A DNA stretch of 64,000 nt from a virus (lineage: Duplodnaviria > Heunggongvirae > Uroviricota > Caudoviricetes). The DNA lies in the IMG/VR virus record IMGVR_UViG_3300036453_000040; one strand, written 5' to 3'. The notes under the pieces are model-generated. The model searched no databases. It saw only the letters and a program-made list of their open reading frames with translations, and was not told where the DNA came from. The position numbers and the translations under genes were made by a program. Of this stretch, positions 9,330 through 60,910 are shown one piece after another (position 1 is the stretch's first letter; every line of letters begins with the position of its first letter).

Positions 9330-9335
9330 AAAGTT

Positions 9336-9344
9336 ATCATACCA
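9336..9344 (-). promoter_or_regulatory. Extended -10-like element (TGgTATGAT) ending 6 nt upstream of the ATG of the 8403..9329 array gene
   Basis: Coding-strand sequence CATGGTATGATAACTTT-ATG. Confidence 0.4.
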
Positions 9345-9361
9345 TGTAGGCTGAGAATAAG

Positions 9362-10291: not shown

Positions 10292-10297
10292 AAAGCC

Positions 10298-10306
10298 ATC
10301 ATACCA
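10298..10306 (-). promoter_or_regulatory. Extended -10-like element (TGgTATGAT) ending 6 nt upstream of the ATG of the 9362..10291 array gene
   Basis: Coding-strand sequence CATGGTATGATGGCTTT-ATG. The 32-nt spacer is conserved between array members. Confidence 0.4.
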
Positions 10307-10323
10307 TGTCGCCCGAGAATAAT

Positions 10324-11250: not shown

Positions 11251-11256
11251 AAACTC

Positions 11257-11265
11257 ATCATATCA
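11257..11265 (-). promoter_or_regulatory. Extended -10-like element (TGaTATGAT) ending 6 nt upstream of the ATG of the 10324..11250 array gene
   Basis: Coding-strand sequence CATGATATGATGAGTTT-ATG. Confidence 0.4.
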
Positions 11266-11282
11266 TGTTGCCAGATAATAAT

Positions 11283-13130: not shown

Positions 13131-13136
13131 AAACCC

Positions 13137-13145
13137 ATCATATCA
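13137..13145 (-). promoter_or_regulatory. Extended -10-like element (TGaTATGAT) ending 6 nt upstream of the ATG of the 12192..13130 array gene
   Basis: Same architecture as the other array spacers. Confidence 0.4.
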
Positions 13146-13162
13146 TGTTGCCCGAGAATAAT

Positions 13163-15019: not shown

Positions 15020-15025
15020 AAAACA

Positions 15026-15034
15026 ATTATACCA
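15026..15034 (-). promoter_or_regulatory. Canonical extended -10 element (TGGTATAAT) ending 6 nt upstream of the ATG of the 14075..15019 gene
   Basis: Coding-strand sequence CTGGTATAATTGTTTT-ATG. It sits in the 20-nt spacer after the stop of the upstream paralog. Confidence 0.45.
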
Positions 15035-15039
15035 GAAGC

Positions 15040-29583: not shown

Positions 29584-30354
29584 TTATCTCATATGATCAA
29601 AGAATTTATCGACAGAAAAATCAATCGCTTTATCTAGACCATTAAAAATGTCATCTTGCATTTTTTTAGAAAAACGCTTCATCCATTGGGATGTGTTTTC
29701 AATGTGAGCATGAAGCTGTTTACGTTGTTTATCAATGTAAGCAAGTTCCCTGACCATGATAATTCTTTGCTCTTTAAGGTGTTTAACTTCAGCGTCATCC
29801 CCGTTAGCCTTAGCAACATACATCGCCTCTTGGTTATCTTCAATGTTAGCTTCAATTTCATCACCACGTTCAGTTAAGCTGGTGAGCAATTTTTTTGAGC
29901 GGTTCATGTCGATTTTAGCATGAAGCAGTTTCATCTTATCGTTCATGAGAGGATCTTGTAGAATTTTTGCTAGTTTACGCTGAGCAATCCTGCGGTCCTC
30001 GGCAGCGGCTAACTCAGATGCGGAATTAAACCTTTCTGCATCACTGAGCTTCTCGTCATTAATTTTAGCTTCGAGAGATTCTTTGCCTTTTGCGGTTGCG
30101 TAGAACTCTGTAAGGGAGTCCTCTTTTGCCTCTTCAAGGGTATCGATACTTTTCTGAAGTTTAGCTTGCTCTTCAGAATAGAAACCGTCAATATCGGAAC
30201 CTTTCCAAGTATCTGGGTTTTCTTTCCTATAATTTTCTTGCTCTTGAGAAACGTCCTCTTTTTTCTGCTCTGCAACATGCAACTTGCGAGCAATCTCTCT
30301 GAGCTTATCGCTGGGGTGATTACTGCAATGAAATCCTGGCCATGGTCTACACAC
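29584..30354 (-). CDS. hypothetical acidic coiled-coil protein
   Basis: 256-aa ORF rich in E/K heptad-like sequence. Confidence 0.45.
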   Translation of the reverse strand: MCRPWPGFHCSNHPSDKLREIARKLHVAEQKKEDVSQEQENYRKENPDTWKGSDIDGFYSEEQAKLQKSIDTLEEAKEDSLTEFYATAKGKESLEAKINDEKLSDAERFNSASELAAAEDRRIAQRKLAKILQDPLMNDKMKLLHAKIDMNRSKKLLTSLTERGDEIEANIEDNQEAMYVAKANGDDAEVKHLKEQRIIMVRELAYIDKQRKQLHAHIENTSQWMKRFSKKMQDDIFNGLDKAIDFSVDKFFDHMR

Positions 30355-34958: not shown

Positions 34959-35000
34959 CACCCCCTATACCTACTATGGTATAGGGGGTGCCTTGTTTTT
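34959..35000 (+). terminator. Rho-independent terminator (13-bp GC-rich stem plus T-run)
   Basis: caccccctatacc-tactat-ggtatagggggtg ccttgttttt. Confidence 0.55.
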
Positions 35001-36465
35001 AGCTGATGTTTTTGCTGATCCATTTAACGCCATCCGCTTGCGTTCTAAATGAATCAGAGTATTGAGCCTTGCGAGCTTTAGTTAAAGCTTCTTTCATCCA
35101 TGGGCCAGGCTTTCGAGTAGGGAATGCTGCCATCATGTTTTCGCCATTTACTAAGTCTTTCTCAGCAGAGTCAGCAATTCCCAGTTTTTCAGCTTTAGCT
35201 AAGATACGGCTCCCCTGCTTAGCGTCACCAGTTGCCATCTCATACAAAGCCCAATCTCGGATGCTTGTGTTATTGGGCATGTCATGAGACCAATTACGCA
35301 AAGAGGTTTTGCCTTGCTTTTGTGGAACTTTGAGTTCTGTAATATTAAAAGCATTATTTTTTTCTTTATCTCCCACGGTTGTAGTGGTAAGAAACTTACG
35401 CCTGTTCTTTGGGTTTAAGCGCTGAGAGATAGTCGCAGAAAGCAAAGCTACCCTCTTGTTCTGTGGTACTGAGCCATTGTCAATAAGTTTTTGCATGCGA
35501 CGAACATTACGGTACAATTTGGAATCGTTTATTTCTGTCAAACCATCAAAGTTTTGATCCCATTCTGTTTCTTTCAAAAGACGAAGGGCTTTATCTGTAC
35601 GCTTCCCCTTTTCGTACAATTTCTGGAATTCCATTTGTACTCGCTCAGTTGCAAGATCTGCAAACGCTGGTCGGAGTGATTTAGCTTTTTCAACAGTATC
35701 AGGGTGTAAGTCCATGCCGAAACGTGAAGCCATTTGTACTCCCCTGAGTACACGCAGCGGGTCCTCATCAAAAGCATCTGAAACATGACGTAGTTGTTTA
35801 GCTTCGATATCCTTAAGCCCACTATGCTTGTCAATGATAAAACCTAACTTATGAGAGTACATAAGAGCATTAATTGTGTAATCACGTCGAGCGGTTGCCT
35901 CTTCCAATGATAGGTCAGGGTTCACTTCTACAGCGAATCCTTTATGACCGTCGCCTATTTTGCTATCAGTGCGAGGTAAGGAAACATCAAAGTCTTCATC
36001 ATCAATACGAATTTTGAGTACTCCGAAAGATTTTCCTACCTCATCCACATGTCCAAGCTTACGGAGTGACTTAATAATAGAATCTGCCTGTCCGCCATAA
36101 ACCTCAATGTCGATATCCTTTGACGGCAAGCCTAGAAGTGCATCTCTAACGCTACCACCGACAATGTAAGGCGAGAAACCATCGTTTTCAAGCTGACGTA
36201 AGACTGCTACAGTATGAGGCGTTAGATCCATTACATAGGTTCTGACATTGCCTAGATCTTTTTTCTCATCATTGAGTGACTCAATTTTTGAAGTAGCATC
36301 TAAAAGCGCTGACTCACTTTTCTTACGTTGTTTATCTGTTAGCCCTTGGCCCAGCAGTCGAGCAGCATGATACTGCTTCTGAGCCTGTAGGTTTCGTTTC
36401 ATAACCCCATACGGGTTATTTTCGTTACAGCGATGACGGCCTTCATTATCAATTGCTCTACACAT
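34999..36465 (-). CDS. cca: Class II tRNA nucleotidyltransferase (CCA-adding enzyme or poly(A) polymerase family)
   Basis: Head-domain motifs YIVGGSVRDALLG...DIDIE, RRDYTINA and DPLRVLRGVQMASRFG. There is an 80-aa N-terminal extension. Confidence 0.75.
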   Translation of the reverse strand: MCRAIDNEGRHRCNENNPYGVMKRNLQAQKQYHAARLLGQGLTDKQRKKSESALLDATSKIESLNDEKKDLGNVRTYVMDLTPHTVAVLRQLENDGFSPYIVGGSVRDALLGLPSKDIDIEVYGGQADSIIKSLRKLGHVDEVGKSFGVLKIRIDDEDFDVSLPRTDSKIGDGHKGFAVEVNPDLSLEEATARRDYTINALMYSHKLGFIIDKHSGLKDIEAKQLRHVSDAFDEDPLRVLRGVQMASRFGMDLHPDTVEKAKSLRPAFADLATERVQMEFQKLYEKGKRTDKALRLLKETEWDQNFDGLTEINDSKLYRNVRRMQKLIDNGSVPQNKRVALLSATISQRLNPKNRRKFLTTTTVGDKEKNNAFNITELKVPQKQGKTSLRNWSHDMPNNTSIRDWALYEMATGDAKQGSRILAKAEKLGIADSAEKDLVNGENMMAAFPTRKPGPWMKEALTKARKAQYSDSFRTQADGVKWISKNIS

Positions 36466-36513
36466 TTTCTATGTCCCTAAGTTTAGTCTTGGTATATTAC
36501 TATCGAAGACTAA

Positions 36514-37317
36514 CTAGTTTGCAGCTTTTAAACGCACTAAAGTTGCATGTTTTTTACTGATAGCTTCGTGGCTATTCTTATTAGGGTTATTCAATAACTG
36601 GTTTGGTACTACTTCTAAGATGACAAATCTCATATTACGAGGCAATAAGTGCTCTTGCTCTTTGTGAGCATTAGCATGCCCGAAGCTGGACAAGGGGGCA
36701 CCGCTAGACGTTTCGATCTCATAAACAATGTTTGAAAGACCAGAATCCTTACCATTCAAAAGCTCTAAGTATTGCTCACGATTCTTAATTCCGAACGTTC
36801 CCGTAGACGGAGGAAGATCCTCATACGATTCGGGCAAAAAATCAAATAACGCTTCAGGGTTAGTTGTCGTTGACATGTAGCCTTCAATTGTTAGCTCTTG
36901 CCCAACTTTAAACTTGTTGCTTACAAAATCAGCAGATTCATCTGGAGTTGCGAAGTTGTTATCAAATAATTTAGTTGCCCTATAAACAATCTTGCTCTTT
37001 GTGCCTTCTATTTTTTTATGTTTTGCTAATGCTGTATCAATTTTTGTCATCATCGTTTTAACGTCATGGCTTTGAACACCGTAAAGATGCTCCCCAATTT
37101 GGGTATAGGACTGGTTCGCATAAGAAGCTAGCGCTTCTTTTTCTGCATCAGTTAGCAAAAGAGAATAGTTCTGTGAGTCTCTAAGAGTTTTGTTGATATC
37201 ATTTGCAGGGTTAAAATTAAACGTACCTGTTTTTAAATCTAATGTACTTGCAAAATTAACTCCATGCACACGACAAATAGCAGGGATATTAGCTCGACAT
37301 GCAATGGGTTTAATCAT
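36514..37317 (-). CDS. C3-like (R-S-E class) mono-ADP-ribosyltransferase domain protein
   Basis: KIVYRATK provides the catalytic Arg. GYMSTTT is the STS motif. EQEHLLPRN is the Q/E-x-E motif followed by LLPR, as in C3 exoenzyme. There is no signal peptide. Confidence 0.6.
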   Translation of the reverse strand: MIKPIACRANIPAICRVHGVNFASTLDLKTGTFNFNPANDINKTLRDSQNYSLLLTDAEKEALASYANQSYTQIGEHLYGVQSHDVKTMMTKIDTALAKHKKIEGTKSKIVYRATKLFDNNFATPDESADFVSNKFKVGQELTIEGYMSTTTNPEALFDFLPESYEDLPPSTGTFGIKNREQYLELLNGKDSGLSNIVYEIETSSGAPLSSFGHANAHKEQEHLLPRNMRFVILEVVPNQLLNNPNKNSHEAISKKHATLVRLKAAN

Positions 37318-41688: not shown

Positions 41689-42762
41689 TTAATCTTTAAT
41701 TGTAGCATCCCATGGTGCATTCAACAGCGCCTTAGAGAAGACTGATAATTTGTCCCTAAGTAGCGTGGTATACGCACGGTCGTAAACTGCTATATCTGCT
41801 TTTTTCTCTTTGCTATCACGATTAAAAAAGCTAGATATTTTTTCCAAAGCGCCTTTACTTTCTTGCGCTCGGTAAGAACTTAACCCGTTTCTAACGAGGT
41901 CGTTACGCATAGATTTAACGAGTGCTTCTTTTTCGCTATCTGTATAATCAGGGTTATTAACAAGGCGACCAATTGCGTTGTTATACTTACCTACGCTAAT
42001 ACCACTGTTACCCACGGCAAAATCAGTATCCAATTCATTATAATCAAGCCCGTCAAGATGAACCGTTTTATCTTCCCAGTGAGCTATATCTTCTTTTTGA
42101 AGAAAAAATGCATTTCTGCTTCTAGTAGCTAAAGCAACAGCATTATCTACTTTAGTATGAAATTCGTCATAATTAGCTTGTAATCGAGTAACGTTATCTT
42201 GAGTTTTAGCGTAATCTAACGCTGAAGTTGCACGTGCTTCTTCTTCAGTTGCGCCTTTACCTTCATAAGTTCCATTCTTCCATTGCTCTTCAAAAACTTG
42301 AGGGCTGTTATAGCTATGCGCTTCTTTGGCGAAATCAAGCATTTGTTTGCTATCTTCATATTTAGCTAAAAGTTGCTCTTGGCCTAAAGCTCTATTGTAG
42401 TTTTTACGTATTGCTCCTAAAGAACTTGCGCTTGGATGTTTAGTGCTCTCTAAAAGATCTGGTTTCATCCTATTTGAGATATTTAACTCATGACCAAAAG
42501 AGGGAGTACTTGAGTCAACAGCTGCGGGGTCCACCTTGTTAAAAACTGAATCAGCTATCTCCTTGCTCAGGGCCGCGCGTTCTACCGCGTCAATTTTGCC
42601 ATCAGCGGATGCAAGATCAATGGAAGCTTGATGACGTTCTAAGCTTTTAGTCGTTTCACCTATCCTATGGTTACTTGCACCGACATATTTACACGCTCTT
42701 TTAGTAGCTTTGCAGGGTTTCCATCCCGTAGGAGTATTATGCTGTAGTTGTTTAGTTGCCAT
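41689..42762 (-). CDS. hypothetical protein
   Basis: 357-aa ORF. Confidence 0.5.
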   Translation of the reverse strand: MATKQLQHNTPTGWKPCKATKRACKYVGASNHRIGETTKSLERHQASIDLASADGKIDAVERAALSKEIADSVFNKVDPAAVDSSTPSFGHELNISNRMKPDLLESTKHPSASSLGAIRKNYNRALGQEQLLAKYEDSKQMLDFAKEAHSYNSPQVFEEQWKNGTYEGKGATEEEARATSALDYAKTQDNVTRLQANYDEFHTKVDNAVALATRSRNAFFLQKEDIAHWEDKTVHLDGLDYNELDTDFAVGNSGISVGKYNNAIGRLVNNPDYTDSEKEALVKSMRNDLVRNGLSSYRAQESKGALEKISSFFNRDSKEKKADIAVYDRAYTTLLRDKLSVFSKALLNAPWDATIKD

Positions 42763-42828: not shown

Positions 42829-43491
42829 TTAGCTTAAAAGAGAAGTGAACCCGTTTAAAGCGAAGTCATCTCGTCCTCGCCATGATGCGCTCGTTTGAAC
42901 GTGGTTAGCTCGTACAAATTTTGCAACATGTTGTCCAAACTCGCTATATGGAATCATGCCCGCATCACGCAACACGAACCCTTCTGAGACTGTGGAGTCT
43001 AAGACCTTGCCCCATGCTTGGGTAGCTTCCTTATAGCTTGTACCGCGATACAGTGTTGGTACAACGGGCAGTCCCAGCATGCTAGCGAACTCACTCATGT
43101 CATCGAAAGAGAGCAAGTTGTTGTTCTCATCCCAAATCCCGAATACATATAAAGGCCCCTCAAGTGAATCGTAAGCTACTGACCTGCGAGCTTGAAGTGA
43201 CTCTCCTGTTACTCGCCAACCCGTAGGAATATCAAAGCGTACCTGACTCCAGATTCGCTTCGCTAACGTATCCCAAGCGTGAGTGCCAGAATCAAGAGAG
43301 CGAGCATGGAAATAATCAGGGTAAAGGGAGACGTTTCCGCCGTCAAGTTTCTCAGTTACTACAAGTTCAATGCCGCTCTCTAAATAAGCAAGGGCAGAAG
43401 CTGAAGCCATCTTGTCATCACTGGTCATGCCTTCAGAAAAGGGCAAGTGTGGCGTACGAGGATATTTATAACGCATAGTTGATTCACTCAT
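42829..43491 (-). CDS. ATP-dependent RNA ligase family protein (KxDG nucleotidyltransferase, minimal Rnl type)
   Basis: KYPRTPHLP. Motif I TEKLDGGN. Motif IV-like EGFVLRD. Motif V-like AKFVRANH. Confidence 0.6.
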   Translation of the reverse strand: MSESTMRYKYPRTPHLPFSEGMTSDDKMASASALAYLESGIELVVTEKLDGGNVSLYPDYFHARSLDSGTHAWDTLAKRIWSQVRFDIPTGWRVTGESLQARRSVAYDSLEGPLYVFGIWDENNNLLSFDDMSEFASMLGLPVVPTLYRGTSYKEATQAWGKVLDSTVSEGFVLRDAGMIPYSEFGQHVAKFVRANHVQTSASWRGRDDFALNGFTSLLS

Positions 43492-43699: not shown

Positions 43700-45193
43700 C
43701 TACTTCACTAGTGGAAATAAGACAGTATCCCTGATTCCCTTGTTAGAAAGAATCATAATTAAACGGTCAATTCCCATGCCAATACCTCCAGTTGGAGGCA
43801 TTCCGTATTCTAATGCTTGCAGGAAGGACTCATCTAGAGCCATGGCTTCATCGTCACCACGCCCAGCAAATCTAGCTTGTTCAACTAGACGCTCGCGTTG
43901 GATAACAGGGTCAACAAGTTCTGAGTACCCTGTTGCTACTTCCATACCAGCAATGTAAAGGTCCCACTTTTCTACTACTCCAGCGATAGAACGATGATTA
44001 GCAACTAGCGGCGAGCTATCAACAGGGTAATCGAAGACAAAAGTAGGCAAGGTAAGGTTAGGCTTAACGTAAGATTCCCACAGTTCTTCAACTAGCTTTC
44101 CTCTTGTTGGAGCTTGAATCTTGATATTGCGAAGATCAGCAAGGCTTACAATTTCGCTAAGCGGAGTTAGAGGAGTAATTTCAACCCCAGAGGCTTCACT
44201 CAAAGACTCATACAAAGAAATGCGCTGCCACGGGTCGTTTAAGCTCCCGAGGTTCTTCTTGACTTCAGCTAGGGTTTCAGCTGTAACATATCTACCAATA
44301 TCATGGGCAGACTCCTTGATAACGGCCTCTACACGATCTGCCATCCTATTGTAATCAGAGTAAACTTCATAAGCTTCAAGCATAGTAAACTCAGGAGAGT
44401 GAGTTGAATCCATTCCCTCGTTACGGAAGTTCTTGTTAATTTCAAATACTCGGTCCATGCCGCCAACAACAGCTCTCTTCAAAAAAAGCTCTGGAGCAAT
44501 ACGTAGGTAAAGGTCTTCGTCAATAGCATTGCTATGGGTTACGAACGGGCGTGCAGAAGCGCCCCCATGGAGAGTTTGCAAGATAGGGGTTTCGACTTCA
44601 AGGTAGTCATCCTCCTCGAACATTCTACGAATTCTTGAAATAACCTTTGAACGAAGAATTGCTTGGTTGCGAGCTTCACTACTGAGAATCAGGTCAAGGT
44701 AACGTTGACGAGCGCGAGTTTCATCATTCAAGTCAGAATGCTGGTTGGGCAGAGGCCGAATAGCCTTAGAAATCACACCCCAAGTAACCACAAAGATAGA
44801 CAGTTCACCTGTCTTAGAGGTGGAAACAAGGCCCGTAACAGTTACATGGTCACCAAGGTCAACCTTCTGCCTCCAAACAAGGTGTGACTCATCGCCAATT
44901 TCAGCACGAGAGATCAAAAGTTGCATTTGATCTCCACGGCCAGATTGAATAACAGCAAAAGAAATGCGACCTGCGTTGCGAATACTCATAAGTCGGCCAG
45001 CAATAGTGACAGTATCTTCAGTCTTGGTATCAGCTTCAAGGTCAGTATAGTCCATACGGATCTTCGCGATGCTATCAACAGCTTCCGCAAAGTTAACAGG
45101 ATAGGGGTTATGCCCCATCTCAATTAGGTTCGCTCGCTTCTCCAGCCTTACAAGCATCTGGTCTGACGTGTCGGGAGCGCGTGTTGAACTCAT
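43700..45193 (-). CDS. lysS: Lysyl-tRNA synthetase, class II
   Basis: N-terminal OB anticodon-binding domain. Class II motifs. C-terminal GGIGMGIDRLIMIL. Confidence 0.9.
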   Translation of the reverse strand: MSSTRAPDTSDQMLVRLEKRANLIEMGHNPYPVNFAEAVDSIAKIRMDYTDLEADTKTEDTVTIAGRLMSIRNAGRISFAVIQSGRGDQMQLLISRAEIGDESHLVWRQKVDLGDHVTVTGLVSTSKTGELSIFVVTWGVISKAIRPLPNQHSDLNDETRARQRYLDLILSSEARNQAILRSKVISRIRRMFEEDDYLEVETPILQTLHGGASARPFVTHSNAIDEDLYLRIAPELFLKRAVVGGMDRVFEINKNFRNEGMDSTHSPEFTMLEAYEVYSDYNRMADRVEAVIKESAHDIGRYVTAETLAEVKKNLGSLNDPWQRISLYESLSEASGVEITPLTPLSEIVSLADLRNIKIQAPTRGKLVEELWESYVKPNLTLPTFVFDYPVDSSPLVANHRSIAGVVEKWDLYIAGMEVATGYSELVDPVIQRERLVEQARFAGRGDDEAMALDESFLQALEYGMPPTGGIGMGIDRLIMILSNKGIRDTVLFPLVK

Positions 45194-49867: not shown

Positions 49868-50992
49868 CTAGAAGCGAAGCTTAGCTTCCTTTAGGTAAGG
49901 AGCGTACTCGCGGAGTACGGAACCAATGAGTAGAGCGGCCTCAGACTTGGACTCAGACGAGGTGCGAACCTTGTCCATGAGCGGGAAGGCAAGAGCCGTG
50001 CAAACATCGGCTTTCTCACCGATTTTAGCAGCAGCGCCGAAGACCTGCGCGCTAGCCTTGACGTTCTCGCTGTTCATACGACCGAGAATCATGGAAAGAA
50101 TGACATAAACCTCACTAGAGGAACGTGATTTCCAGTCAACCTTTTCGGGGTTAGCAAGAACATCATCATAGTTAGGGAGGTTCAAGCTCTGCTCAAACAC
50201 GGAGAACTGCTGTGCGGCCTTTTCGCCTACGGCACCACGAGTAGCAATAGCACGCGGCGAGCTACCTTCAAGGTACTGTAGCATGGAAACGAGGTTATCC
50301 CAAGAACGGTACGAGGGCCATGCCTTACCTGCTTCTTCGGCATTCTTAGGCATCGAGTTAATGAGAGTCGGGTAAGCCTTAAGGAACGCGACAACCTTAG
50401 CTCGTTCAACGCTTTCACGTTCGCTTACTACGTTGCCCCAAGCAACGGTCATTCCTTCAAGGAAGTCGTTGTTGTCAGGCTCGAAGTGAATGTGAATGAA
50501 ACGGTTAGCCATGGGAGCGGCAAGCGTCCAGCCGTCAGCGGCATCAGAAGCTTCGTTAGCTGCGGCGATCATCCAAACATCATCAGAAAGCGTGTGCTTA
50601 CCAATCATGCGACCCTGGAAAAGCGAAAGGCCAGCAGCCTGCATGGACGGCACAGCGTTAGAAATCTCGTCAAAGAAAATAATTCCCTTGCCAGTACGCA
50701 GAAGTTCTTCCGCCCAGAAGTTGAGAGTGTTATCAGTGATGGTAATTTCGGTACCATCGGGCAGGATTACCTGCTTAAGAGCAGGCAGACCCTGCAAGTC
50801 GGTGCTGTCCATAGTGGACAGAAGCAGAACGTAGAGGGGGAGGTCATACTTTGCTGCAAGAGCGCGAACTAGCGCGGTCTTGCCAACACCTGGAGCACCC
50901 CAGAGAATTGTAGGAACTCCAGACTTGCGACCCGCATCAAGTACGGAAATCGTGTTCTGCATGTTTTTCGAGCGACCAATGTAAGTACCCAT
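49868..50992 (-). CDS. MoxR-like AAA+ ATPase
   Basis: Walker A motif GAPGVGKTAL. Walker B motif IIFFDEIS. Size and organisation of MoxR/AAA_5 ATPases. Confidence 0.75.
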   Translation of the reverse strand: MGTYIGRSKNMQNTISVLDAGRKSGVPTILWGAPGVGKTALVRALAAKYDLPLYVLLLSTMDSTDLQGLPALKQVILPDGTEITITDNTLNFWAEELLRTGKGIIFFDEISNAVPSMQAAGLSLFQGRMIGKHTLSDDVWMIAAANEASDAADGWTLAAPMANRFIHIHFEPDNNDFLEGMTVAWGNVVSERESVERAKVVAFLKAYPTLINSMPKNAEEAGKAWPSYRSWDNLVSMLQYLEGSSPRAIATRGAVGEKAAQQFSVFEQSLNLPNYDDVLANPEKVDWKSRSSSEVYVILSMILGRMNSENVKASAQVFGAAAKIGEKADVCTALAFPLMDKVRTSSESKSEAALLIGSVLREYAPYLKEAKLRF

Positions 50993-52427: not shown

Positions 52428-54707
52428 TTATTCAGCTACAAGGTTGATATAGTTGATAATCTGACGAAGTTTTGCTTCCACCAGATGATCTCCCGCTTCT
52501 GATGTAGTAATAAGGAAGAAACTCTCTGCAACTTCAGCCATGCTGGAAGCTTTTTCAGTAAGAACCTCGTTAAGATCAGCATCGTTGTGCTTGACATAGC
52601 CAGCCCAATAAGACAGGTTAGCCTTACGCTCTTCAACCTTAATGAACTCTGCAATTTCTTCAGGAGTAGCATCCTTCGCATGAGAAGCATCCGCTGATTT
52701 TTTTAGGTTAATCCATTCCCTGACCTGCAAGAACTTTTGATTGTGGACTTCCGCTAGAAGACCCCTTTCTTCAAGAGTTTTATAGTGGAGAATTAGGCGA
52801 TCCACACGGCTGCGCATAGTGTAGCTACCTTGAAGCTTAGTCATTACTTCGTTGAAAGTATAGTTAGACTCAGGTTCATAATGCTCAAGTGCATAAGCGC
52901 GTACAAGTGGTTCAATTTCTTGAGCCGAGGGATACTCAGTGGTAAACTTCTCGATTGAGACGCGCGAATTGAGAAGGAAAATTGGCGTATCTCCAATTAT
53001 CTTTCGAGCGAACCCAAACATTCCACGGGCATTATCACGCTGAGTAATAGTGTAAATATCGTTATCGTCGTCGTGTGAGAACCATGGAAAACTTGAACGT
53101 GAACGATCCTGCTTCATGTAATAAACAGTCTTGTTTTTATTTAGTTCAGCAAGGCGCTCATCCTTCGCATAAATGCGCTCGATCTCACGAGTGCCATCAT
53201 CTTTTGAAGTCAAGAAGTAAGCTACAACTTTTTTAGCAGCAGGAGCTTTATCAAGAACACCGTTCTCCTCTTTGATTCGCTTGCGTTCGTTCTTTGCATA
53301 GACCTTGACAACTTCAATCAGCTTAGAAACAGTCGGGTACTCTTCATTGTGAGCAAAAGCAAACCAATCGTTATCATAGTCTTTTTTGGAGACAATGATA
53401 ACTCGTTCTTTGCCTGTCATTTCACGAATCATTCGAGCATGACGACGAGCAAGCACAGAATTTTCTCTTAGCAGACCATCGTTAAGAACAATCAGGTCGT
53501 AAGTATCCCCTTGGAAATAGTTACGATATGCATAAGTGTAGTTAGAGAAGTAACTTGCCGTGTTTTTAGTAGCCCCACGATAGTTTGACGAGGAAACTAG
53601 CACAGATTGATCCGCTGTCACAAAGTCCTCAGGAATGATTTTACCTCTCCACTTAAGGCCATCGCTCTGCCAGTAACCCATGTCCCTAATAGCAAGGTTC
53701 ATTTCAACAGCTTCACGGGGAGTCTTAGCACGGTTAACGTTAGCAGTGAAATGAACTTCAATTGCTTCAACAAAGTTACGAAGAGCGATCTCAAGAATGT
53801 TCTTCGTTTTATCGCTGTAGAGAAGCTCTTCACGACTCGGGGTAAGGTCAACGGAGCCAATTGGAATGTTCAAGAAAATACGGTGAGCAAACTGAGCTAT
53901 ATGATTGAACTTTGACTTGTTGATCCAAGTATCCTGAATTACATACTTTACTCCACCAATAACAGCGAGGAGGTTGGTTTCGTTATAATTACCCCGCGAG
54001 CGCTGGGAAGCAATCTCGTACCAACCAGCATTATCCTCGTTTGTCATGCCCATAATAGGCGTAAACTTTTCTTCGTTATTCAACGCCGTAGTACTGATAA
54101 CTCCGTTGATACGTAGGGTGCCGCTGGGGAATCCAACGAAAAAGTCGTTTACAAATGCAGTATCAAAAGTATAGTCTGCGTAAGGAATAGTTACTTCCAC
54201 TCCGCTGGGTTCAGTGGTTGCTTCTTCCGAAACGAAATAAAGCAAACCTGCACCTTGGATGTTTTTCTCTACATAAAAATCAAGGCGAAGGCCATCTTTA
54301 ATAGAAACTACGTCGAAACGTGAGGCAATAGCAAGGGCTGACTTTGCGCCAAGTCCAAAGCCGCCAATTTCATCGTTATTATCGCGCTTAGTTGAAGTTC
54401 CATAACGAGAGTAAACATTCGTAATGTCTTCCTTGCTCATACCTGCGCCATAGTCACGAACTACAAGGAAACGTGAACCATAGGTAGGGAGCGTAATGTC
54501 AATAGGAGTATTAATCTTGCTCTTCGTGTGAGAGTCAATAGCGTTGGAAACGTACTCACGCAGGATTGCAGTGTGAGGCTGGGAATATAGGTTCGTCAGA
54601 ACACCCATGATATGCACGAGGGCGCTAGAGTCAATAGACAGGGCAATTGACTCATGGGCCGAAGTATTCTCTAGGGCCTTCTTATCAGTTCTGGATACAG
54701 TCTTCAT
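52428..54707 (-). CDS. Hsp90-like GHKL (Bergerat-fold) ATPase with a large uncharacterised C-terminal region
   Basis: NLYSQPHTAILREYVSNAIDS resembles the Hsp90 N-box. DYGAGM is like the G1 box. IGGFGLGAKSA is like the G2 box. Confidence 0.55.
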   Translation of the reverse strand: MKTVSRTDKKALENTSAHESIALSIDSSALVHIMGVLTNLYSQPHTAILREYVSNAIDSHTKSKINTPIDITLPTYGSRFLVVRDYGAGMSKEDITNVYSRYGTSTKRDNNDEIGGFGLGAKSALAIASRFDVVSIKDGLRLDFYVEKNIQGAGLLYFVSEEATTEPSGVEVTIPYADYTFDTAFVNDFFVGFPSGTLRINGVISTTALNNEEKFTPIMGMTNEDNAGWYEIASQRSRGNYNETNLLAVIGGVKYVIQDTWINKSKFNHIAQFAHRIFLNIPIGSVDLTPSREELLYSDKTKNILEIALRNFVEAIEVHFTANVNRAKTPREAVEMNLAIRDMGYWQSDGLKWRGKIIPEDFVTADQSVLVSSSNYRGATKNTASYFSNYTYAYRNYFQGDTYDLIVLNDGLLRENSVLARRHARMIREMTGKERVIIVSKKDYDNDWFAFAHNEEYPTVSKLIEVVKVYAKNERKRIKEENGVLDKAPAAKKVVAYFLTSKDDGTREIERIYAKDERLAELNKNKTVYYMKQDRSRSSFPWFSHDDDNDIYTITQRDNARGMFGFARKIIGDTPIFLLNSRVSIEKFTTEYPSAQEIEPLVRAYALEHYEPESNYTFNEVMTKLQGSYTMRSRVDRLILHYKTLEERGLLAEVHNQKFLQVREWINLKKSADASHAKDATPEEIAEFIKVEERKANLSYWAGYVKHNDADLNEVLTEKASSMAEVAESFFLITTSEAGDHLVEAKLRQIINYINLVAE

Positions 54708-54863: not shown

Positions 54864-56543
54864 ATGACTCGCGGAACAACTAAGCTTACCGAAGAACAGC
54901 AGAAGTTTTATCGCACGCTCCTTATTCGTGCTACGTCTCCCGACCTTGGACAGCCCTACATTGCATATGCTCTGTTCGAGCTAATCCCTGTTTCAGCGCC
55001 TGGGCTTAAGACAATGGCAGTGGATAAGAACTGGCGCGTTTACATTGACTTCGAGTACATGAAAGAAAAGGGCGTTGAATACGCCGCTGGAGTCCTCAAC
55101 CACGAACCTTGGCACCTTCTGCGTGACCACATGCGTCGTTTTGACTCGCTTGATATTCTTGAGAACGGCAGACAGCATAACCATAAGGCATGGAACATTG
55201 CTGGCGACCTCACCATCAACGGTGACATTCCCAAGCTCGTTCCCGAAGATGGTTGCTTCCCTGAAAAGGGACCATTCGTTGATTACCGTCTGAATACTTC
55301 CGCTGAGGACTACTACTCTCAGCTTATGACGGATGAAAAATTCAATCCTCCTGCCTGCCCCGATTGTGGCAAGCCTGAAAATAAGGACAAAGACAAGTCT
55401 GACAAGGGCGAAAACAAGGACAAAGACAAGTCTGACAAGGGCGAAAAGTCTGACGAGTCGGGCGACGGCGAGAAGTCTGACAAGGGCGAAAAGTCTGACG
55501 AGTCGGGCGACGGCGAAAATGAGGGTGACGGCGACGGTGAGGGCGAAGGCTCTGGTGAGGGCGAAGGCTCTGGTGAGGGCGAAGGCTCTGGTGAGGGCGA
55601 AGGCTCTGGTGAGGGCGAAGGCTCTGGCTCTGGCAAGTGCAACACTTGTGGAGAAGAAAATGGTTCTGGTTCTGGTTCTGGTGAGGGTGAGGGCGAAGGC
55701 AGTGGCCTTGGTGGAGTTCCTCAGCCCATGTGCGGTAGTGGTGCTGGAAACAAGATAGGAGATTATGAGCTTAGCGAGGATGAAGCTAAGAGCGTAGATG
55801 CCGAGCGCGGGGACCAGATTCGTCAGGCTGTTGCAACGGACATGAAACAGTATGAAGCTTCTAACCCTGGCAAACTTCCTGGTGGCCTTAAAATTTGGGC
55901 TGATAACGAACTAAAGGCTGAACCTATTGACTGGCGACAGCTTCTTCGAGGACAGATCAAGAAAGCAATCTCCTCGTGGACTAAGGGCAAGATGGATTAC
56001 CGTCGCTCTAAGCCTAACCGTCGCCAGCCTAGCCGTGACTTCATCTTCCCTGCAATGCAGGCTCCTAAGCCGCGACTCGCAGTAGCGATTGACACGTCAG
56101 GTTCACATCTTCACAAGCTTCCCGTAGTAATTGACCAGATTGTCGAACTTACTAAGCAGGTCGGTGTTCGTGGCCGTGATCTACTTGCGTTCGGTGTTGA
56201 TGTTCAGATTACTGACGTGAAGCCCGTTAACGACCCTCGCAAGGTACTCGATGACATGGTAGGCGGTGGAGGTACTGATATGTGTGTTGGTATCGAGCAG
56301 CTTGCAGAACTTGGTCGCAAAAACAAGGCCGACATTGGTATCATGCTTACTGACCTCCAAACGGGTTGGCCTACAGAACGTCCTCAAGGTCCTATGCGTT
56401 ACATTGTCTGCGGCATCGTAGATTCTAGCCAAGAGTGGGAAATGCAATGGGTTGAAAAAGCACGCGAGGCAATCGGTGACTGGGCAGAAATTGTCGTTAT
56501 TGATGTGGACGCAGCTAACGTAGCCGCGAAAAAGCGCCGCTAG
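54864..56543 (+). CDS. Metallopeptidase-like N-domain (HEPWH) plus a VWA-like domain (DUF2201 type), with an acidic KD/GE-rich low-complexity insert
   Basis: HExxH-like [13 protein letters not shown]-like [10 protein letters not shown]. Transcribed divergently from the MoxR-containing operon. Confidence 0.65.
55383..55700 (+). repeat. In-frame short tandem DNA repeats encoding an acidic low-complexity tract
   Basis: ggtgagggcgaaggctct x5 (55536-55625). A 33-nt unit x2 (55383-55448). Repeated gaaaagtctgacgagtcgggcgacggcga units. Confidence 0.7.
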
Positions 56544-57454: not shown

Positions 57455-57475
57455 TTTTTGACCGTAATAGATAGC

Positions 57476-57535
57476 AAATACTAGCTCTCCTCGTAACCAA
57501 TACGTTATTGCGAGGAGAGCTAGTATTTTTATATT
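57476..57535 (+). terminator. Rho-independent terminator (18-bp stem plus T-run)
   Basis: aaatactagctctcctcg ... cgaggagagctagtattt ttatatt. Confidence 0.55.
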
Positions 57536-58101
57536 CTGGCACGCTATTTCAGTTTTCGTTGAAGCAAGAACATCGCCAAATTAACGTAGGTAAAGTGCAG
57601 AGATCACACAGGAGCAAAAGCGCTGAAGCCCCCTACAAGCCATTCTTTCTTTAACATGGAACTGTGCCTGCTCAAGTATAAAAAAGCGCTCAGTAGCTCA
57701 CACAGGGCCTTTTTAAGTAACCTCAGGGGCTAACTTACGAGTGGTTGCTAGATTCGCAGAAGTATGCGCTTTAAGTGAACGTCCAAGCGTACTCATCTCA
57801 GAGCTACTAATGCTTGTAGCATTAAGATGAGGAAATATAACCAAGTTTTTAAAATACCAGAGGTACAGCGAAGATACATGCTAAAATTGTTATACAACCA
57901 ATTAGTATCGCGAAAGGATACATAATTCCTATTATAGACAGCTCCGTAAACACCTCTTATAATCGTGAAAGCGATTACGAAATGATTGACTTAGGAGAAG
58001 GCATATCAGTTGATCCCAGAAATGGCCGTATAGGTTTCCGCGCTTAAATTTAAACCTTTGATTTTGAATTTAAGCGTAAAGAATGTGATAGACTTACGAC
58101 C

Positions 58102-58806
58102 ATGCTAGAAAAATATAAAAACATTCAACTTCCTGCTTTTGTTTCGTTCCCAGAAGCACCAACCGTTTACTTCATTAAAGATAACGGTACAAACTTTTAT
58201 GTTGAAGGAATTCCATCACAAGAGTTCAACCTAGTGTCAGAAGTTGAAGAATATATTCTTAAAACATTGGAAGGCGAAGTTTCGTTCAACTCTGCCGAAT
58301 TAAGCAGGGGAGAACCTCAGATCTCAGGAGATCAAGCTGTTGAGGGTTTCATTTTTGAGAAAGCTACCAACCGCATGATAGTTTCTTATACATCTCAAGA
58401 TACTATCAATAGCCTAAAAGCTGATTATTACGATTTTCTGGAACTTGATAGGGAATATAGCGAAAACCCTGAAGATTGGGCTATTGCTTACAACTGGGTA
58501 GCTAGCCATCCTGCGTTTTATCATCGCAATAGTTCCAATGCAACCTTTTGGGATTTTTGTAACGGATGGGATTCTAAGTGGGAGGCTGTTTATAAATTGG
58601 AAGAAGGTGGAAATTTAATTCTCATTGAGCATGGACCTTTTATAGGTACAGACCGAGTTCAAAGCACGCATGATCCTCGCCTTGACTCATCAGGCGAGAA
58701 TTTCGAAGAAGCTTATATTAAATTTGCTAAACTCGTGAGCAAACACTATGATATTCTCGGAGAAGATCGTAAACTTGCAAAAGAAGACGCTCCAGAGTTA
58801 TTCTAA
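58102..58806 (+). CDS. hypothetical acidic protein immediately upstream of the second ADP-ribosyltransferase
   Basis: 234-aa ORF. Confidence 0.5.
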   Translation: MLEKYKNIQLPAFVSFPEAPTVYFIKDNGTNFYVEGIPSQEFNLVSEVEEYILKTLEGEVSFNSAELSRGEPQISGDQAVEGFIFEKATNRMIVSYTSQDTINSLKADYYDFLELDREYSENPEDWAIAYNWVASHPAFYHRNSSNATFWDFCNGWDSKWEAVYKLEEGGNLILIEHGPFIGTDRVQSTHDPRLDSSGENFEEAYIKFAKLVSKHYDILGEDRKLAKEDAPELF

Positions 58807-58869
58807 ACCGTTTCAACTAAGTGATGGTTTGTAACCCGTTACCCTTTGATCGGTTAGTTATAAACGGAT

Positions 58870-59655
58870 ATGACTACTACCTTCCCCCCACATGCAGATG
58901 GTTCACGATGCTGGACTCATGATTGTTCTTTAAGGCATGGTTCTAACCTGCAAACTGCAATCAAAAATAACGATTCTAGCGGATACCTAAAAGCACGAGA
59001 AGCAGCAGATCAGAAAGCTAAAACTTCTTCCGCTCAAACTGTTACATATCCCATGCTTGAATACGGTAGCACCAACTATAAGCTTTTCATGGAAAAATCC
59101 GAAGAACTTATGTACCAGTTAGACGGTAAAGAATCAAAAGCCGTCATGGAATACACGGGTTGGTCCTACCAGCAATATTACGAATACCTTGAAGATTCCA
59201 ACAATCAGAACATGACTGATGAGCTTAAACAATCTCTTAGTGAAGGTACTGGGCATCTTGATTCTGTCATCAAAAAAGCAGGCAAGTTAGATAAACATGT
59301 AACTGCATTCAGAGGCGAAAAAGTACCTCAAGGTACTAGTATTGAATCTCACCTTGCTGCGAAATTTCCTGTAGGTCAAGATGTTAACGTAAAACGCTAC
59401 ATGTCTACAAGTATGGACTCAAAAGTTGCATCAGATATCCTTGGCGACAGTGACACCTCCTCCTCTTACGTTCTTGCAATCAAAACTAAAGAAGGAGCCA
59501 TGCTGGGAGAATACCTAAGTGAGCAAGGCCTACGGGAAAAAGAAATACTACTTCCTCGTGACCGCACCTACCGTGTCGAGTCTATTACTTCTGCCGTCAT
59601 CTCATGGGGTGTATCTAAAAAACGCCACACGGTAGTAAACCTCACTCTATTATAG
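58870..59655 (+). CDS. C3-like (R-S-E class) mono-ADP-ribosyltransferase domain protein. Paralog of 36514..37317
   Basis: AFRGE provides the Arg. YMSTSM is the STS motif. EKEILLPRD is the ExE motif followed by LLPR. Confidence 0.6.
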   Translation: MTTTFPPHADGSRCWTHDCSLRHGSNLQTAIKNNDSSGYLKAREAADQKAKTSSAQTVTYPMLEYGSTNYKLFMEKSEELMYQLDGKESKAVMEYTGWSYQQYYEYLEDSNNQNMTDELKQSLSEGTGHLDSVIKKAGKLDKHVTAFRGEKVPQGTSIESHLAAKFPVGQDVNVKRYMSTSMDSKVASDILGDSDTSSSYVLAIKTKEGAMLGEYLSEQGLREKEILLPRDRTYRVESITSAVISWGVSKKRHTVVNLTLL

Positions 59656-59718: not shown

Positions 59719-60549
59719 TTAAAGAAAGGGAGCCATGAGATCCTGAAAAAAATCTGATAAGCCGAACGATGCAAAACTCACGATACCAACCATCACAACA
59801 AAGACCGTGGCAAGTATGGCGTTTACAGAATCATCTAAGAACTCCGAGACTTTTCCTAATTTCTTTGTTACGATTTCTACAGGTGTGGGAACCCAAGGAG
59901 CTTCACCGTTTGCTGTTTCTACTGCAATAGGCGGAAACTTAGCGAGGAGCGGCTGACTACTGATAGCCGCGCTTACATCTTCAAACGAGAGTCGGTTTCT
60001 ACTTTGAATTACAGAATGATACAAACACGAGGGAGTCATGTCATCAGTGTATGAAAACGACGGGGGTTTTAGGAAAAGCACCGCCTGTGACGTGCAAACT
60101 GGAGAACCGCATTTATCTACCACGATTTTTGTTACCCTCTGATGCGCGTAGCGAAAACCCTTCTTATGTTGCATAAATTTTCCCGAAATTGCAACTTCAA
60201 GTAGTACCGAACCTTTCGACTCCTGTGGATGTTCTTCAGCGGCAGCACGCGAAGGGTAAGCATAAAAACCACAGGTACAATGAGCGCCTACAAGCTTGTG
60301 GTGTTTCTTGAACGTTTTTACAAAAAAACCATTCTGCTGAGCAGGAGACCAACTATCTAAATCTGCGATTGTGTAACAGATTGCTTCGCTGTTGAGACCT
60401 GACTGAATACCAACAGCAAGTGCTTTAACTTGGATATAACCATTTGGGGTACGAGTCAGATAATTACGTTTCCACCCAAGGATAGCTTTAGACTCTTCCT
60501 TTGTGTTCGTGGTACGCGTAACGTGTCCTATGAATTGGTTCCAGAGCAT
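59719..60549 (-). CDS. hypothetical protein (Cys/His-containing, C-terminal TM helix)
   Basis: Start set at MLWNQ, which is preceded by AAGGGAA. The longer track ORF begins 16 codons upstream. Confidence 0.45.
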   Translation of the reverse strand: MLWNQFIGHVTRTTNTKEESKAILGWKRNYLTRTPNGYIQVKALAVGIQSGLNSEAICYTIADLDSWSPAQQNGFFVKTFKKHHKLVGAHCTCGFYAYPSRAAAEEHPQESKGSVLLEVAISGKFMQHKKGFRYAHQRVTKIVVDKCGSPVCTSQAVLFLKPPSFSYTDDMTPSCLYHSVIQSRNRLSFEDVSAAISSQPLLAKFPPIAVETANGEAPWVPTPVEIVTKKLGKVSEFLDDSVNAILATVFVVMVGIVSFASFGLSDFFQDLMAPFL

Positions 60550-60910
60550 ACGTTCCCTTACTTGTAATATGTATACTCGTATCCTACCATAATACAAGAC
60601 CTTGTGTCAAGATAAGTTCAAGTTAAAAAGTAATGGCAGCGGCCTTCATAATTTAGGTTTATGAAGGCCGCTGCCATTACTCTAAAGTTAGTTTTAAGAC
60701 CAGTCAGAATCATCCACCCATGATTTTACAGGAACGTTTTCTTCTTCTTTTGTCTTCATTTTGCTATCAGTCATTGTACTTTTTCTCTTAAGGGACATTA
60801 TTATAACTATCAACTAGTTGCTTAAAAACAAGATAAGTGATAAGGTAAGAACATAAGGATTTTAATATTCATTACCCTTACCTAAAACAGCAAAAATAGA
60901 GGACAATTCA

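Follow-up and report, generated by a model that had tools for sequence, protein, structure and literature searches.

The gene at positions 58870-59655 (plus strand) of a 64,000-nucleotide stretch of viral DNA (hereafter the window) is best explained, with a rough probability of 0.6, as encoding an active arginine-directed mono-ADP-ribosyltransferase (ART) that would serve host takeover and has no dedicated partner protein. This 261-aa enzyme, here called ART2, would draw on host NAD+ within infected cells and ADP-ribosylate host proteins at their arginines, and the modification, to judge from family membership, would be part of host takeover as with Alt, ModA and ModB of phage T4. These T4 enzymes modify RNA polymerase and translation factors. 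Reversal of the ART2 modification, if any, would more likely be the work of a DraG/ARH1-like hydrolase of the phage (28533-29573).

The Locus and Its Phage

ART2 is preceded on the same strand, across a gap of 63 nt, by an ORF encoding a 234-aa protein (58102-58806). The ORFs, their coordinates, the gap and the motifs quoted in the original prediction were all confirmed, and both genes are real, each having relatives at 33-96% identity in metagenomes. The window carries genes for a RIIA homolog (E = 3e-76), aaRS, RNA ligase, CCA enzyme, NrdE, RadA, MoxR/VWA and DNA methylase. These genes place the window in an uncultured large lytic phage. Relatives of the 234-aa protein sit on contigs of 177-358 kb.

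A megablast search of the 56-62 kb region against INPHARED gave no match to a cultured phage, and tblastn searches of INPHARED with ART2 and with the 234-aa protein gave none either. Nothing was found when IMG/VR was scanned with profiles of the two families and with a motif pattern, and the family of the 234-aa protein has no match in 185,579 reference genomes. The phage clade is missing from the INPHARED and IMG/VR collections as searched, and ART2 appears from its sequence to be a new, divergent ART of an uncultured clade, without close relative in cultured phages.

Similarity of ART2 to Alt/VIP2-Type Enzymes

ART2 matches Pfam PF03496 (ADPrib_exo_Tox) at E = 2.8e-17 over profile positions 7-191 of 196 (63.1 bits, where the cutoff is 23.4), and this domain is present in all ART2 relatives. 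It also matches PHROG 802, "Alt-like RNA polymerase ADP-ribosyltransferase" (E = 1.2e-8). The motifs VTAFRGEKV, KRYMSTSMDS and LREKEILLPRDRTY are in place. The catalytic Arg148 in AFRGE (59311-59313) is invariant in two family alignments; the NAD-binding motif S179-T180-S181 (59404-59412), which aligns with the STS of Vip2, and the ARTT motif E223-K-E225 (59536-59544), an ExE motif of the arginine-directed type, are invariant in the family (all on the plus strand). These residues are unchanged in 8/8 ART2 family members, with counterparts in ART1, the paralog described below, and both catalytic Glu residues are invariant in all relatives.

The AF2 model of ART2 has a pLDDT of 72.8 overall and of about 80-90 in the catalytic part. 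It shows a low-confidence N-terminal part (residues ~1-60), a helical region (~60-137) and a catalytic core (~138-261), and it has the expected ART fold, a split beta-sandwich with an N-terminal helical region. In a Foldseek search against the PDB, the model matched Certhrax, Vip2, C3 and C2-I at E of about 1e-9 and probability 1.00, with TM of 0.5-0.65 when normalised to single-domain targets. Taken together, the sequence and the model point to a bona fide R-S-E ADP-ribosyltransferase with catalytically intact motifs.

The enzyme had been described as C3-like, which holds at the level of fold (the Foldseek matches above) and does not hold for the subfamily. The C3 exoenzyme has a QxE motif and modifies Asn41 of Rho. 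Both paralogs carry ExE rather than QxE (E223-K-E225 in ART2, E220-Q-E222 in ART1), the best sequence matches of ART2 are Vip2 and the Alt-like PHROG, and a signal peptide is lacking. In a profile search against the PDB, Vip2 was the top match (7.5e-5), C3larvin reached 0.081 and C3bot was not listed; in the sequence alignment the EKEILL segment of ART2 is the same as that of Vip2, residue for residue. Because of its ExE motif, its best sequence match to Vip2 and its Alt-like PHROG, ART2 is placed with the arginine-directed Alt/VIP2 enzymes, and its arginine specificity is deduced solely from ExE and from the resemblance to this family.

The N terminus of ART2 is polar, with a maximum 10-aa hydropathy of -0.55 versus 2.78 for a secreted control protein of the window, and the 10-aa hydropathy scan revealed no signal peptide or hydrophobic N terminus. 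ART2 is thus likely to be intracellular. This bears on the idea of a secreted exotoxin-type moron that aids the bacterial host against eukaryotes, comparable to phage-borne C3, CTX and Vip2-like toxins. The C3 exoenzyme is phage-borne, and the closest neighbors of ART2 in structure and sequence (Certhrax, Vip2, C3 and C2-I) are bacterial exotoxins; however, besides its polar N terminus, ART2 comes with no translocation or binding component, its genome is that of a lytic large phage with RIIA, and all members of its family sit on phage-like contigs. Such a role is therefore highly improbable.

A Cys/His Module at the N Terminus

The N-terminal part of ART2 contains a Cys/His module (58891-58938, plus strand) of the form H8-x5-C14-x4-C19-x3-H23, "HADGSRCWTHDCSLRH". 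D10, S12, C14, T16, C19, S20 and H23 are invariant across the 8-member ART2 family, and the region is left unmodelled by AF2 (pLDDT about 43). The module is about 13-16 residues long. Its canonical version, found in ART1, reads C-x-A-K-[ND]-P-x-T-C-R-V-H-G, and the ART2 variant reads C-x4-C-S-L-x-H, so that the Cys spacing is C-x4-C-x3-H in ART2 versus C-x7-C-x2-HG in the canonical form. A literature search for the literal motif returned no relevant paper, and the cysteine motif is nowhere mentioned in the study of polyvalent proteins (PMC5512222). We regard the segment, speculatively, as a separate small module that probably serves targeting (e.g., encapsidation or docking) or binds metal.

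The module stands at the N terminus of both ARTs and of further, unrelated proteins, and modules of this kind precede several unrelated enzymes of the phage. A PBECR2-like, effector-like protein that occupies the MuF slot behind a Mu-type portal bears it as well, and its place beside the portal is the only indirect hint of packaging.

A broader reading would make the module a portable tag not described before, which could be a metal knuckle or a signal for encapsidation/ejection and would label effector enzymes of uncultured large phages and Mu-like prophages; ART2 would then be delivered, and the acidic protein upstream might be a chaperone or regulator in a sub-clade. The bearers under this reading would be the two ARTs, proteins of unknown function and the PBECR2-like nuclease by the portal. 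In this window, ART2 is not near head or portal genes and has no MuF fusion: no MuF domain was found in it, and no structural genes were recognised near it by Pfam, PHROG and homology searches, so that the gene context lends packaging no support. We consider the portable tag rather unlikely. If a packaging or targeting tag were true, it would provide a sequence handle to predict the enzymes that large phages deliver or co-localise.

The Paralog ART1

ART1 (36514-37317), a 267-aa ART, is indeed a paralog of ART2, with 24% identity and a BLASTP E of 3e-8, as had been claimed; it lies on the minus strand, which had not been stated. It matches PF03496 at E = 1.3e-12 and carries the module "CRANIPAICRVHG" as well as R113, S149-T-T and E220-Q-E222. 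The catalytic residues are invariant in the ART1 family (n = 9), and the Cys/His N-terminal module is found in 7/7 of its full-length members. ART1 and ART2 have separate ortholog sets at 39-96% identity, and contigs of one sample, ERZ27247812, contain orthologs of both (related contigs and loci are denoted by L numbers; L005 for ART2 and L022 for ART1). By sequence, then, the two appear to be ancient, separately conserved ART paralogs of the phage clade.

Immediately downstream of ART1 lies a gene for a CCA-adding/poly(A) polymerase-family enzyme (34999-36465, minus strand; Pfam PolyA_pol, PHROG 2244), a conserved neighbor whose adjacency is retained in L021 (87% identity) and L022 (47%), and RNA ligase and aaRS genes are found nearby. 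This context raises the possibility that ART2 acts on nucleic acid or NAD-capped RNA, through ModB-like RNAylation or DNA/RNA ADP-ribosylation, in connection with RNA-repair genes. T4 ModB, an R-S-E ART, RNAylates proteins (PMC9503650), and the Cys/His module could be a nucleic-acid-binding knuckle. The RNA-repair context, however, belongs to ART1 and not to ART2, and a Pfam-type profile search detected no nucleic-acid-binding domain in ART2. The DNA-targeting R-S-E ARTs pierisin and scabin have QxE rather than the ExE of ART2. An action on nucleic acid is hence quite improbable, and modification of host proteins is preferred.

The Upstream Acidic Protein

The original prediction held that an acidic protein encoded upstream could neutralise a basic ART. 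The 58102-58806 protein (plus strand) is acidic, with a pI of 4.48 and 42 D+E versus 20 K+R, but ART2 is not basic (pI 6.40; range of the ART2 family 6.1-8.8) and the charge argument fails. Moreover, the acidity is not distinctive, because 31% of the window proteins have a pI below 5 and their median is 5.47. The protein is one of a large family, so far uncharacterised, that has the conserved motifs SHPAFYHR, EHG and DxRLD, is confined to large-phage-like contigs and generally acidic (median pI 4.7, irrespective of context), and for which no Pfam, PHROG or PDB relative was found. A profile search yielded ~450 cluster representatives, a size whose contrast with the ART2 family is partly made by the tools, an exhaustive profile search in one case and a word-indexed search in the other. 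Its invariant residues (His, Glu and Asp) would suit an enzyme or a protein that binds a ligand better than they would a charge plug. The family may merit a definition of its own. One apparent member, P0102 (4,001 aa), which seemed to hold 13 "copies" of the N-terminal region of the acidic protein, is an FN3/Ig repeat protein, and we regarded the match as a repeat artefact.

The acidic protein is upstream of ART2 on the same strand in 4/8 ART2 lineages, and each of these is closely related and syntenic over the whole neighborhood; where the pair is kept, the syntenic block consists of p232, the acidic protein, ART2, a 292-aa gene and p241. In L006 the acidic protein is encoded elsewhere, on the other strand and 2 kb from ART2. 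It is missing in three further lineages (L003, within ±5 kb; L008; L020), where missing means absent from the available flanks, most related contigs being short (1-4 kb). The spacing between the two genes is 63-74 nt, and in L004 a whole gene is inserted between them. Conversely, no ART was found near five distant loci of the acidic protein with usable flanks on both sides: none lies within up to 10 kb, or less at contig ends, at L014/15, L016/17 and L018, and none immediately downstream at L009 and L012. A DNA methylase or DUF59 protein comes after the distant genes instead. Cryptic ARTs near these homologs were sought with a permissive HMM search (E < 50) and a scan for the R-S-E motif; none emerged, and the single motif match is a DUF885 protein, not an ART. 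ART1, too, lacks a neighbor of the acidic family in the neighborhoods of the window, L021 and L022.

The ~450 representatives, the 4/8 lineages, the distant loci without ART, the ART1 gene without partner and the pI of 6.4 indicate that the 58102-58806 protein serves ART2 neither as a dedicated immunity protein nor as a dedicated regulator. Its adjacency to ART2 reflects the local synteny of close relatives, and among remoter genomes the linkage expected of a conserved pair is lost in both directions. A two-gene toxin-immunity module, in which the acidic protein would be the cognate immunity protein, antitoxin or regulator that keeps ART2 bound and neutralised until the enzyme is needed, is further disfavored by the 63-74 nt spacing and the inserted gene, which are unlike tightly coupled TA pairs, and by a PADLOC and TA-family search that gave zero matches. 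We consider it unlikely, and the reading as an acidic immunity partner should not be propagated into annotation. Within the close sub-clade there may be a functional link, because the two genes stay adjacent and co-oriented in relatives as divergent as 51-56% identity and no terminator was called between them.

Upstream of the pair, a strong hairpin with a T-run after the preceding gene (57470-57535, plus strand; dG -33.5 kcal/mol) is a likely terminator and likely insulates what follows. Just upstream of the acidic protein gene lies a conserved micro-ORF or leader (57982-58047, plus strand) of 21 codons from its ATG, with peptide-level conservation starting at 57961; compared with a 40-aa gene that was called at this position in L001, it shows 81% aa identity over 27 residues and ~71% at the DNA level. 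A sigma-70-like promoter candidate, TAGACA-17-TATAAT (57935-57963, plus strand), agrees with the consensus at 11 of 12 positions and is a consensus match only, since such sites are no more numerous here than in shuffles. Rfam matches in the 650-nt gap upstream of the acidic protein gene were miRNA-like, sub-threshold and spurious, and came from the terminator hairpin. The acidic protein gene is probably co-transcribed with ART2, and the micro-ORF and the two genes possibly form one transcription unit.

An ADP-Ribosylglycohydrolase in the Same Genome

The window also encodes an ADP-ribosylglycohydrolase (ARH) of the DraG/ARH1-like type (28533-29573, minus strand; PF03747, E = 1e-39), a candidate eraser of Arg-ADP-ribose. 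Its top PDB matches are ADP-ribosylarginine hydrolase (7e-7) and DraG. ART2, ART1 or both might form with it a reversible writer/eraser cycle, like DraT/DraG and Tre1/Tri1, that times or limits the modification of a host or phage target or protects phage proteins. Its nearest solved relatives are the arginine-specific ARH1 and DraG, which fits ExE-type ARTs, and its position is conserved together with ART1 in L021; ART-ARG pairs are also known in Aeromonas phages (PMC9503650). On the other hand, the ARH gene lies too far from ART2 (29 kb) and from ART1 (7 kb) to be an operon partner, and the protein scores far below the equivalog cutoffs of NCBIfam for DraG (5.5e-13) and Tri1 (1.5e-4). In addition, the ARH homologs of cultured actinophages occur by themselves, none having an annotated ART in its vicinity, and for this reason counter-defence against host ARTs is equally plausible. 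The gene directly upstream of ARH, g29584, was considered as a hidden ART and rejected (hhalign probability 0.1% against the ART alignment).

A dedicated cycle is therefore doubtful. If the modification is reversed at all, the ARH would be a likelier antagonist of ART2 than the 58102-58806 protein. With two Arg-type ARTs and a DraG/ARH1-like eraser, this phage clade is a candidate system for reversible ADP-ribosylation in infection.

Comparison with Known Systems

The occurrence of two ART paralogs in one window had been thought unusual, but several ARTs per genome are normal in large phages: ARTs are common and often multiple, more than 40% of jumbo phages encode them, phage G has at least 10, and for many of those in large phages packaging and injection have been inferred (PMC9503650). 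With several Alt/VIP2-type ARTs per large phage already common, the finding of ART2 is ordinary as it stands.

ARTs are a common cargo of MuF-toxin and polyvalent-protein systems (PMC5512222). ART2 shares with such effectors an enzyme joined to a portable N-terminal element, and the Cys/His module is also found on the PBECR2-like protein in the MuF slot; it differs in that no MuF domain or polyvalent architecture is present, the module is short and its Cys spacing is another. With the DraT/DraG, Tre1/Tri1 and Aeromonas phage ART-ARG pairs, the phage shares the presence of both an Arg-type ART and a hydrolase of the DraG/ARH1-like type, whereas here the genes are 7 and 29 kb apart and the ARTs are of the PF03496 type, not of the DraT type.

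With the C3 enzyme of Clostridium botulinum, ART2 has in common the fold (Foldseek E about 2e-8, TM up to 0.6) and a similar size, about 25 kDa with one ART domain. C3, however, has QxE and a signal peptide, whereas ART2 has ExE and no signal peptide, and its sequence match to C3 is weaker than that to Vip2. The actin Arg177 ARTs, Vip2 of Bacillus and C2-I, iota Ia and CDTa of Clostridium, include the closest solved relatives by sequence (Vip2, 7.5e-5) and are among the top fold matches, with the ExE type and an identical EKEILL segment in the ARTT region. They are secreted two-domain components of binary toxins whose target is eukaryotic actin, in contrast to ART2, which is single-domain, lacks a signal peptide and is encoded by a lytic phage.

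The functional parallel would be phage T4. Its Alt is an ART that resides inside the head, is ejected and carries an N-terminal propeptide (PMC9026906). ART2 has an Alt-like match in PHROG 802; with 261 aa it is by far the smaller enzyme, its gene lies away from head genes, and it has a Cys/His N-terminal module not described for the T4 enzymes. Like Alt, ModA and ModB, it belongs to the phage-encoded, intracellular R-S-ExE mono-ARTs of PF03496, which occur as several paralogs per genome and which need no immunity gene.

ART2 is an intact phage ADP-ribosyltransferase

Both open reading frames (ORFs) lie where the original prediction had placed them: 58102-58806 (+) encodes 234 amino acids (the acidic protein, hereafter the partner) and, after a gap of 63 nt, 58870-59655 (+) encodes 261 amino acids (the ADP-ribosyltransferase ART2), in which the expected motifs AFRGE, YMSTSM and EKEILLPRD are all there. 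ART2 matches the Pfam family ADPrib_exo_Tox (PF03496) with E = 2.8e-17, far over the gathering score. A search of 5.8 billion proteins yielded only seven relatives (39-96% identity), each annotated as PF03496, and R148, S179-T180-S181, E223-x-E225 and L228-P229-R230 are invariant across them. Conservation of the catalytic glutamates in homologs (E223 and E225) thus favours ART2 as an enzyme. The AF2 model of ART2 has an overall pLDDT of 72.8, with values of about 80-90 for the catalytic part, and in Foldseek it superposes on Certhrax, Vip2, C3bot, C2-I, C3larvin, Plx2A, Vis, CDTa and iota Ia (E about 1e-9 to 1e-7). Among solved structures, Vip2 is closest in sequence (7.5e-5, family profile); its ARTT segment EKEILL is identical to that of ART2, and PHROGs assigns ART2 to phrog_802, 'Alt-like RNA polymerase ADP-ribosyltransferase' (1.2e-8).

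C3 enzymes are defined by an asparagine-directed QxE motif and by secretion. ART2, in contrast, has ExE and a polar N-terminus with no signal-peptide-like stretch; the earlier label 'C3-like' is therefore right for the fold, as the Foldseek matches indicate, but wrong for the subfamily. Judged from its sequence, ART2 is best placed in the arginine-directed Alt/VIP2 group. ART2 is a phage-encoded PF03496 enzyme with all catalytic motifs conserved, no signal peptide and an old paralog in the same window, real and intact but an ordinary kind of phage gene. From what is known of the family, ART2 would use NAD+ to mono-ADP-ribosylate arginine of host proteins during infection, as part of host takeover.

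Its gene content places the window in an uncultured large lytic phage: it encodes a RIIA homolog (52428-54707; phrog_612, E = 3e-76), a class II aaRS (43700-45193), an RNA ligase (42829-43491), a DNA methylase, a CCA-adding/poly(A)-polymerase-family enzyme (34999-36465, -), NrdE, RadA and an SPFH protein, together with the CAP/FN3, DUF2201/VWA and MoxR-type proteins described below. No tRNA genes were found in the window. In 50,697 records of cultured phages nothing matched ART2 or the partner at DNA or protein level, and IMG/VR gave no match either; a 110.7-kb JGI contig carries an identical partner protein according to its database record. A 1,666-aa protein (21984-26984, -) combines a CAP domain and about 14 FN3 repeats with a signal peptide of Gram-positive type. 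As a secreted or surface protein it is unusual in a phage; it is kept in L021, a related metagenome locus. At about 6703-15984 (-) lies a head-to-tail array of some ten paralogs, each roughly 264-314 aa long, which share the N-terminal motif A(S/A)RDPL(S/T)xPxLLxxL(Y/F); the one member tested has no Pfam or PHROG match. A DUF2201 metallopeptidase/VWA protein (54864-56543, +), which pairs with a MoxR-type AAA ATPase (49868-50992), carries a long acidic low-complexity insert between its two domains (about residues 175-285) with KDKSDKGE repeats and a second, 13-letter repeat.

The upstream acidic protein belongs to an independent family

The partner is indeed acidic (pI 4.48), as are many window proteins (pI below 5 in 31%). 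The proposal that it neutralises a basic ART fails, as no basic enzyme is present: the pI is 6.40 for ART2 and 6.1 to 8.8 in its family. The partner is a member of a large independent family, mostly acidic (median pI 4.7); its profile, run exhaustively against 1.84 billion representatives, finds 450 clusters at E<=1e-3 and 264 at <=1e-10. A word-indexed search gives similar counts for the partner (6) and ART2 (7), so the search method accounts for part of the difference in family size, and the decisive test is that of genomic context.

Among metagenome loci with relatives of these proteins, the partner lies directly upstream of ART2 or its ortholog in the window/L007, in L019 (ART 96%, partner 78% identity) and in L001/2/10 (both 56%). 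In L004/5/13 (51% and 47%) it is also upstream, with a 120-aa gene in between. L006 (ART 39%) has a partner homolog 2 kb downstream of the ART, encoded on the opposite strand, none occurs within ±5 kb in L003 (42%), and the genes upstream of the ART in L008 (55%) and L020 (53%) are unrelated to the partner. Loci that retain the pair show synteny across their entire neighbourhood (DUF2201 protein, 232-aa membrane protein, partner, ART2, 292-aa gene, 241-aa gene), and the adjacency in these loci cannot be distinguished from inherited gene order. The gene downstream of more distant partner relatives encodes an Eco57I-type N6 DNA methylase (L014, L015) or a FeS_assembly_P/DUF59 protein (L016, L017, L009) or is an opposite-strand ORF (L018); L012 has no ART immediately downstream, and a permissive HMM and motif scan found no ART within up to 10 kb (less at contig ends) of the distant partner loci. 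Because the pair is broken in some ART2 relatives and no ART was detected near the distant partner loci, conserved co-occurrence is largely absent from homologous loci, and the immunity or regulatory function suggested for the upstream gene is not supported.

It is also evident that in three distant loci the partner-family gene overlaps the small FeS_assembly_P/DUF59 gene after it (L009:2-1158, L016:9944-11031, L017:4942-6065), a pairing more recurrent among distant family members than that with ART2. The 292-aa gene convergent with ART2 (59719-60597, -), without family assignment, has the Cys motif CTCGFYAY and is tandemly duplicated in L004 and L005 (36% and 29% identity; L004:11421-13129). 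In L003:3584-8019 the ART2 ortholog lies among NAD-salvage genes (NAPRTase family, NadR-like CTP_transf+AAA_28, PnuC-like NMN transporter), which suggests that some relatives organise NAD supply together with the ARTs that consume NAD. In L004 and L005 a NADAR-domain gene lies 4 kb downstream of the ART2 ortholog.

The preceding gene is followed by a strong hairpin and T-run (57470-57535, -33.5 kcal/mol), and a sigma-70-like site (TAGACA-17-TATAAT) lies at 57935-57963. Terminator prediction gave nothing between the partner and ART2. Co-transcription of the two is plausible and remains unproven, because promoter-like sites in the region do not exceed those in shuffles. Within the 650-nt gap upstream of the partner, and just downstream of the near-consensus -10/-35 pair, a micro-ORF (ATG 57982 to stop 58047, +; conservation from 57961) shows 81% protein identity with a 40-aa gene called at the same place in L001, and may be a leader peptide or small protein.

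An ADP-ribosylglycohydrolase as candidate antagonist

The window also encodes an ADP-ribosylglycohydrolase (ARH; 28533-29573, -; PF03747, E = 1e-39), whose nearest solved relatives are the ADP-ribosylarginine hydrolase ARH1 and DraG (NCBIfam DraG 5.5e-13, below cutoff). ARH appears a better candidate antagonist of ART2 than the upstream acidic protein. Speculatively, ARH might reverse the modification made by ART2: its ARH1/DraG specificity class fits ExE-type ARTs, its gene is kept in the ART1-bearing L021, and phage ART-ARG pairs are known (PMC9503650). However, ARH lies 29 kb away from ART2, and its homologs in cultured phages of Mycobacterium, Gordonia and Rhodococcus are solitary, none having an annotated ART in its vicinity. 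ARH may equally be a counter-defence enzyme, and the writer/eraser link is accordingly given here as a rival explanation only. ARH is 10 nt downstream of a gene for a 256-aa protein (29584-30354, -), and this pair is kept in L021. The 256-aa protein carries the N-terminal module described below (MCRPWPGFHCSNHP) and is not ART-like by hhalign.

A recurrent N-terminal Cys/His module

The main interest lies in two by-products, the large unnamed acidic family and a recurrent N-terminal module. The first 25 residues of ART2 contain H8-x5-C14-x4-C19-x3-H23, with D10, S12, C14, T16, C19, S20 and H23 invariant in its family. The N-terminus of ART1, the second ART of the window, is CRANIPAICRVHG, and C-x-A-x4-5-C-x2-H occurs in all full-length ART1 relatives. 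Of the 62 window proteins, 4 have the pattern C-x(4-10)-C-x(2-8)-H starting in their first 25 residues against 0.27 expected, a count reached by none of 2000 shuffles, and the pattern occurs nowhere else in those proteins. Near-identical modules (CRAKDPSTCRVHG, CRAKNPATCKVHG, CGAKNPATCWRHG) stand at the N-terminus of unrelated proteins encoded in L008 and L011, the canonical form being C-x-A-K-[ND]-P-x-T-C-R-V-H-G; the motif string was not found in searchable literature. Module-bearing genes lie at 36514-37317 (-), 58870-59655 (+), 29584-30354 (-), 41689-42762 (-) and 34999-36465 (-) in the window, and at L008:806-1777, L011:2676-3641 and 5444-6325, L003:10002-10424 and L026:1419-1832 (-). The ART2 version differs in spacing, so its homology with the canonical module is not established.

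Three Kiritimatiellae MAG contigs, found with a back-translated pattern, encode a 137-aa protein with the module at its residues 5-17. This protein has a weak PBECR2 nuclease match, and its gene directly follows a terminase fragment and a portal gene of Mu type (Portal_Mu, 5e-33). MuF-effector fusions, which are presumed to be packaged and injected, occupy this slot (PMC5512222). In T4, the ART Alt resides inside the head, is ejected and has an N-terminal propeptide, and internal proteins are targeted to the capsid via N-terminal sequences (PMC9026906). From this one context and a motif, a role as targeting tag or metal knuckle is possible, and one might speculate that ART2 is delivered or docked through its module.

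Two separately maintained ART lineages

ART1 (36514-37317, -; 267 aa) matches PF03496 at 1.3e-12 and, as predicted, is a paralog of ART2, homologous but distant (24% identity, E = 3e-8). It has no acidic neighbour. The CCA-adding enzyme gene lies directly downstream, and this pair (34999-37317, -) is kept in L021 (10001-12320) and L022 (4346-6681), down to 47% identity, which hints that ART1 is linked to an RNA-repair set; the RNA ligase, class II aaRS and NUDIX/HAD genes lie near the pair. Two ARTs in 64 kb had been considered unusual, which does not apply to this kind of genome: more than 40% of jumbo phages have ARTs, with at least ten in Bacillus phage G (PMC9503650).

ART1 has its own family of nine members (38-100% identity), in which R113, S149-T-T and E220-x-E222 are invariant, and contigs from one sample carry an ART2 ortholog (L005, 51%) and an ART1 ortholog (L022, 47%). 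Both lineages are thus old and have been maintained separately, which argues for distinct roles, as in T4 Alt, ModA and ModB.
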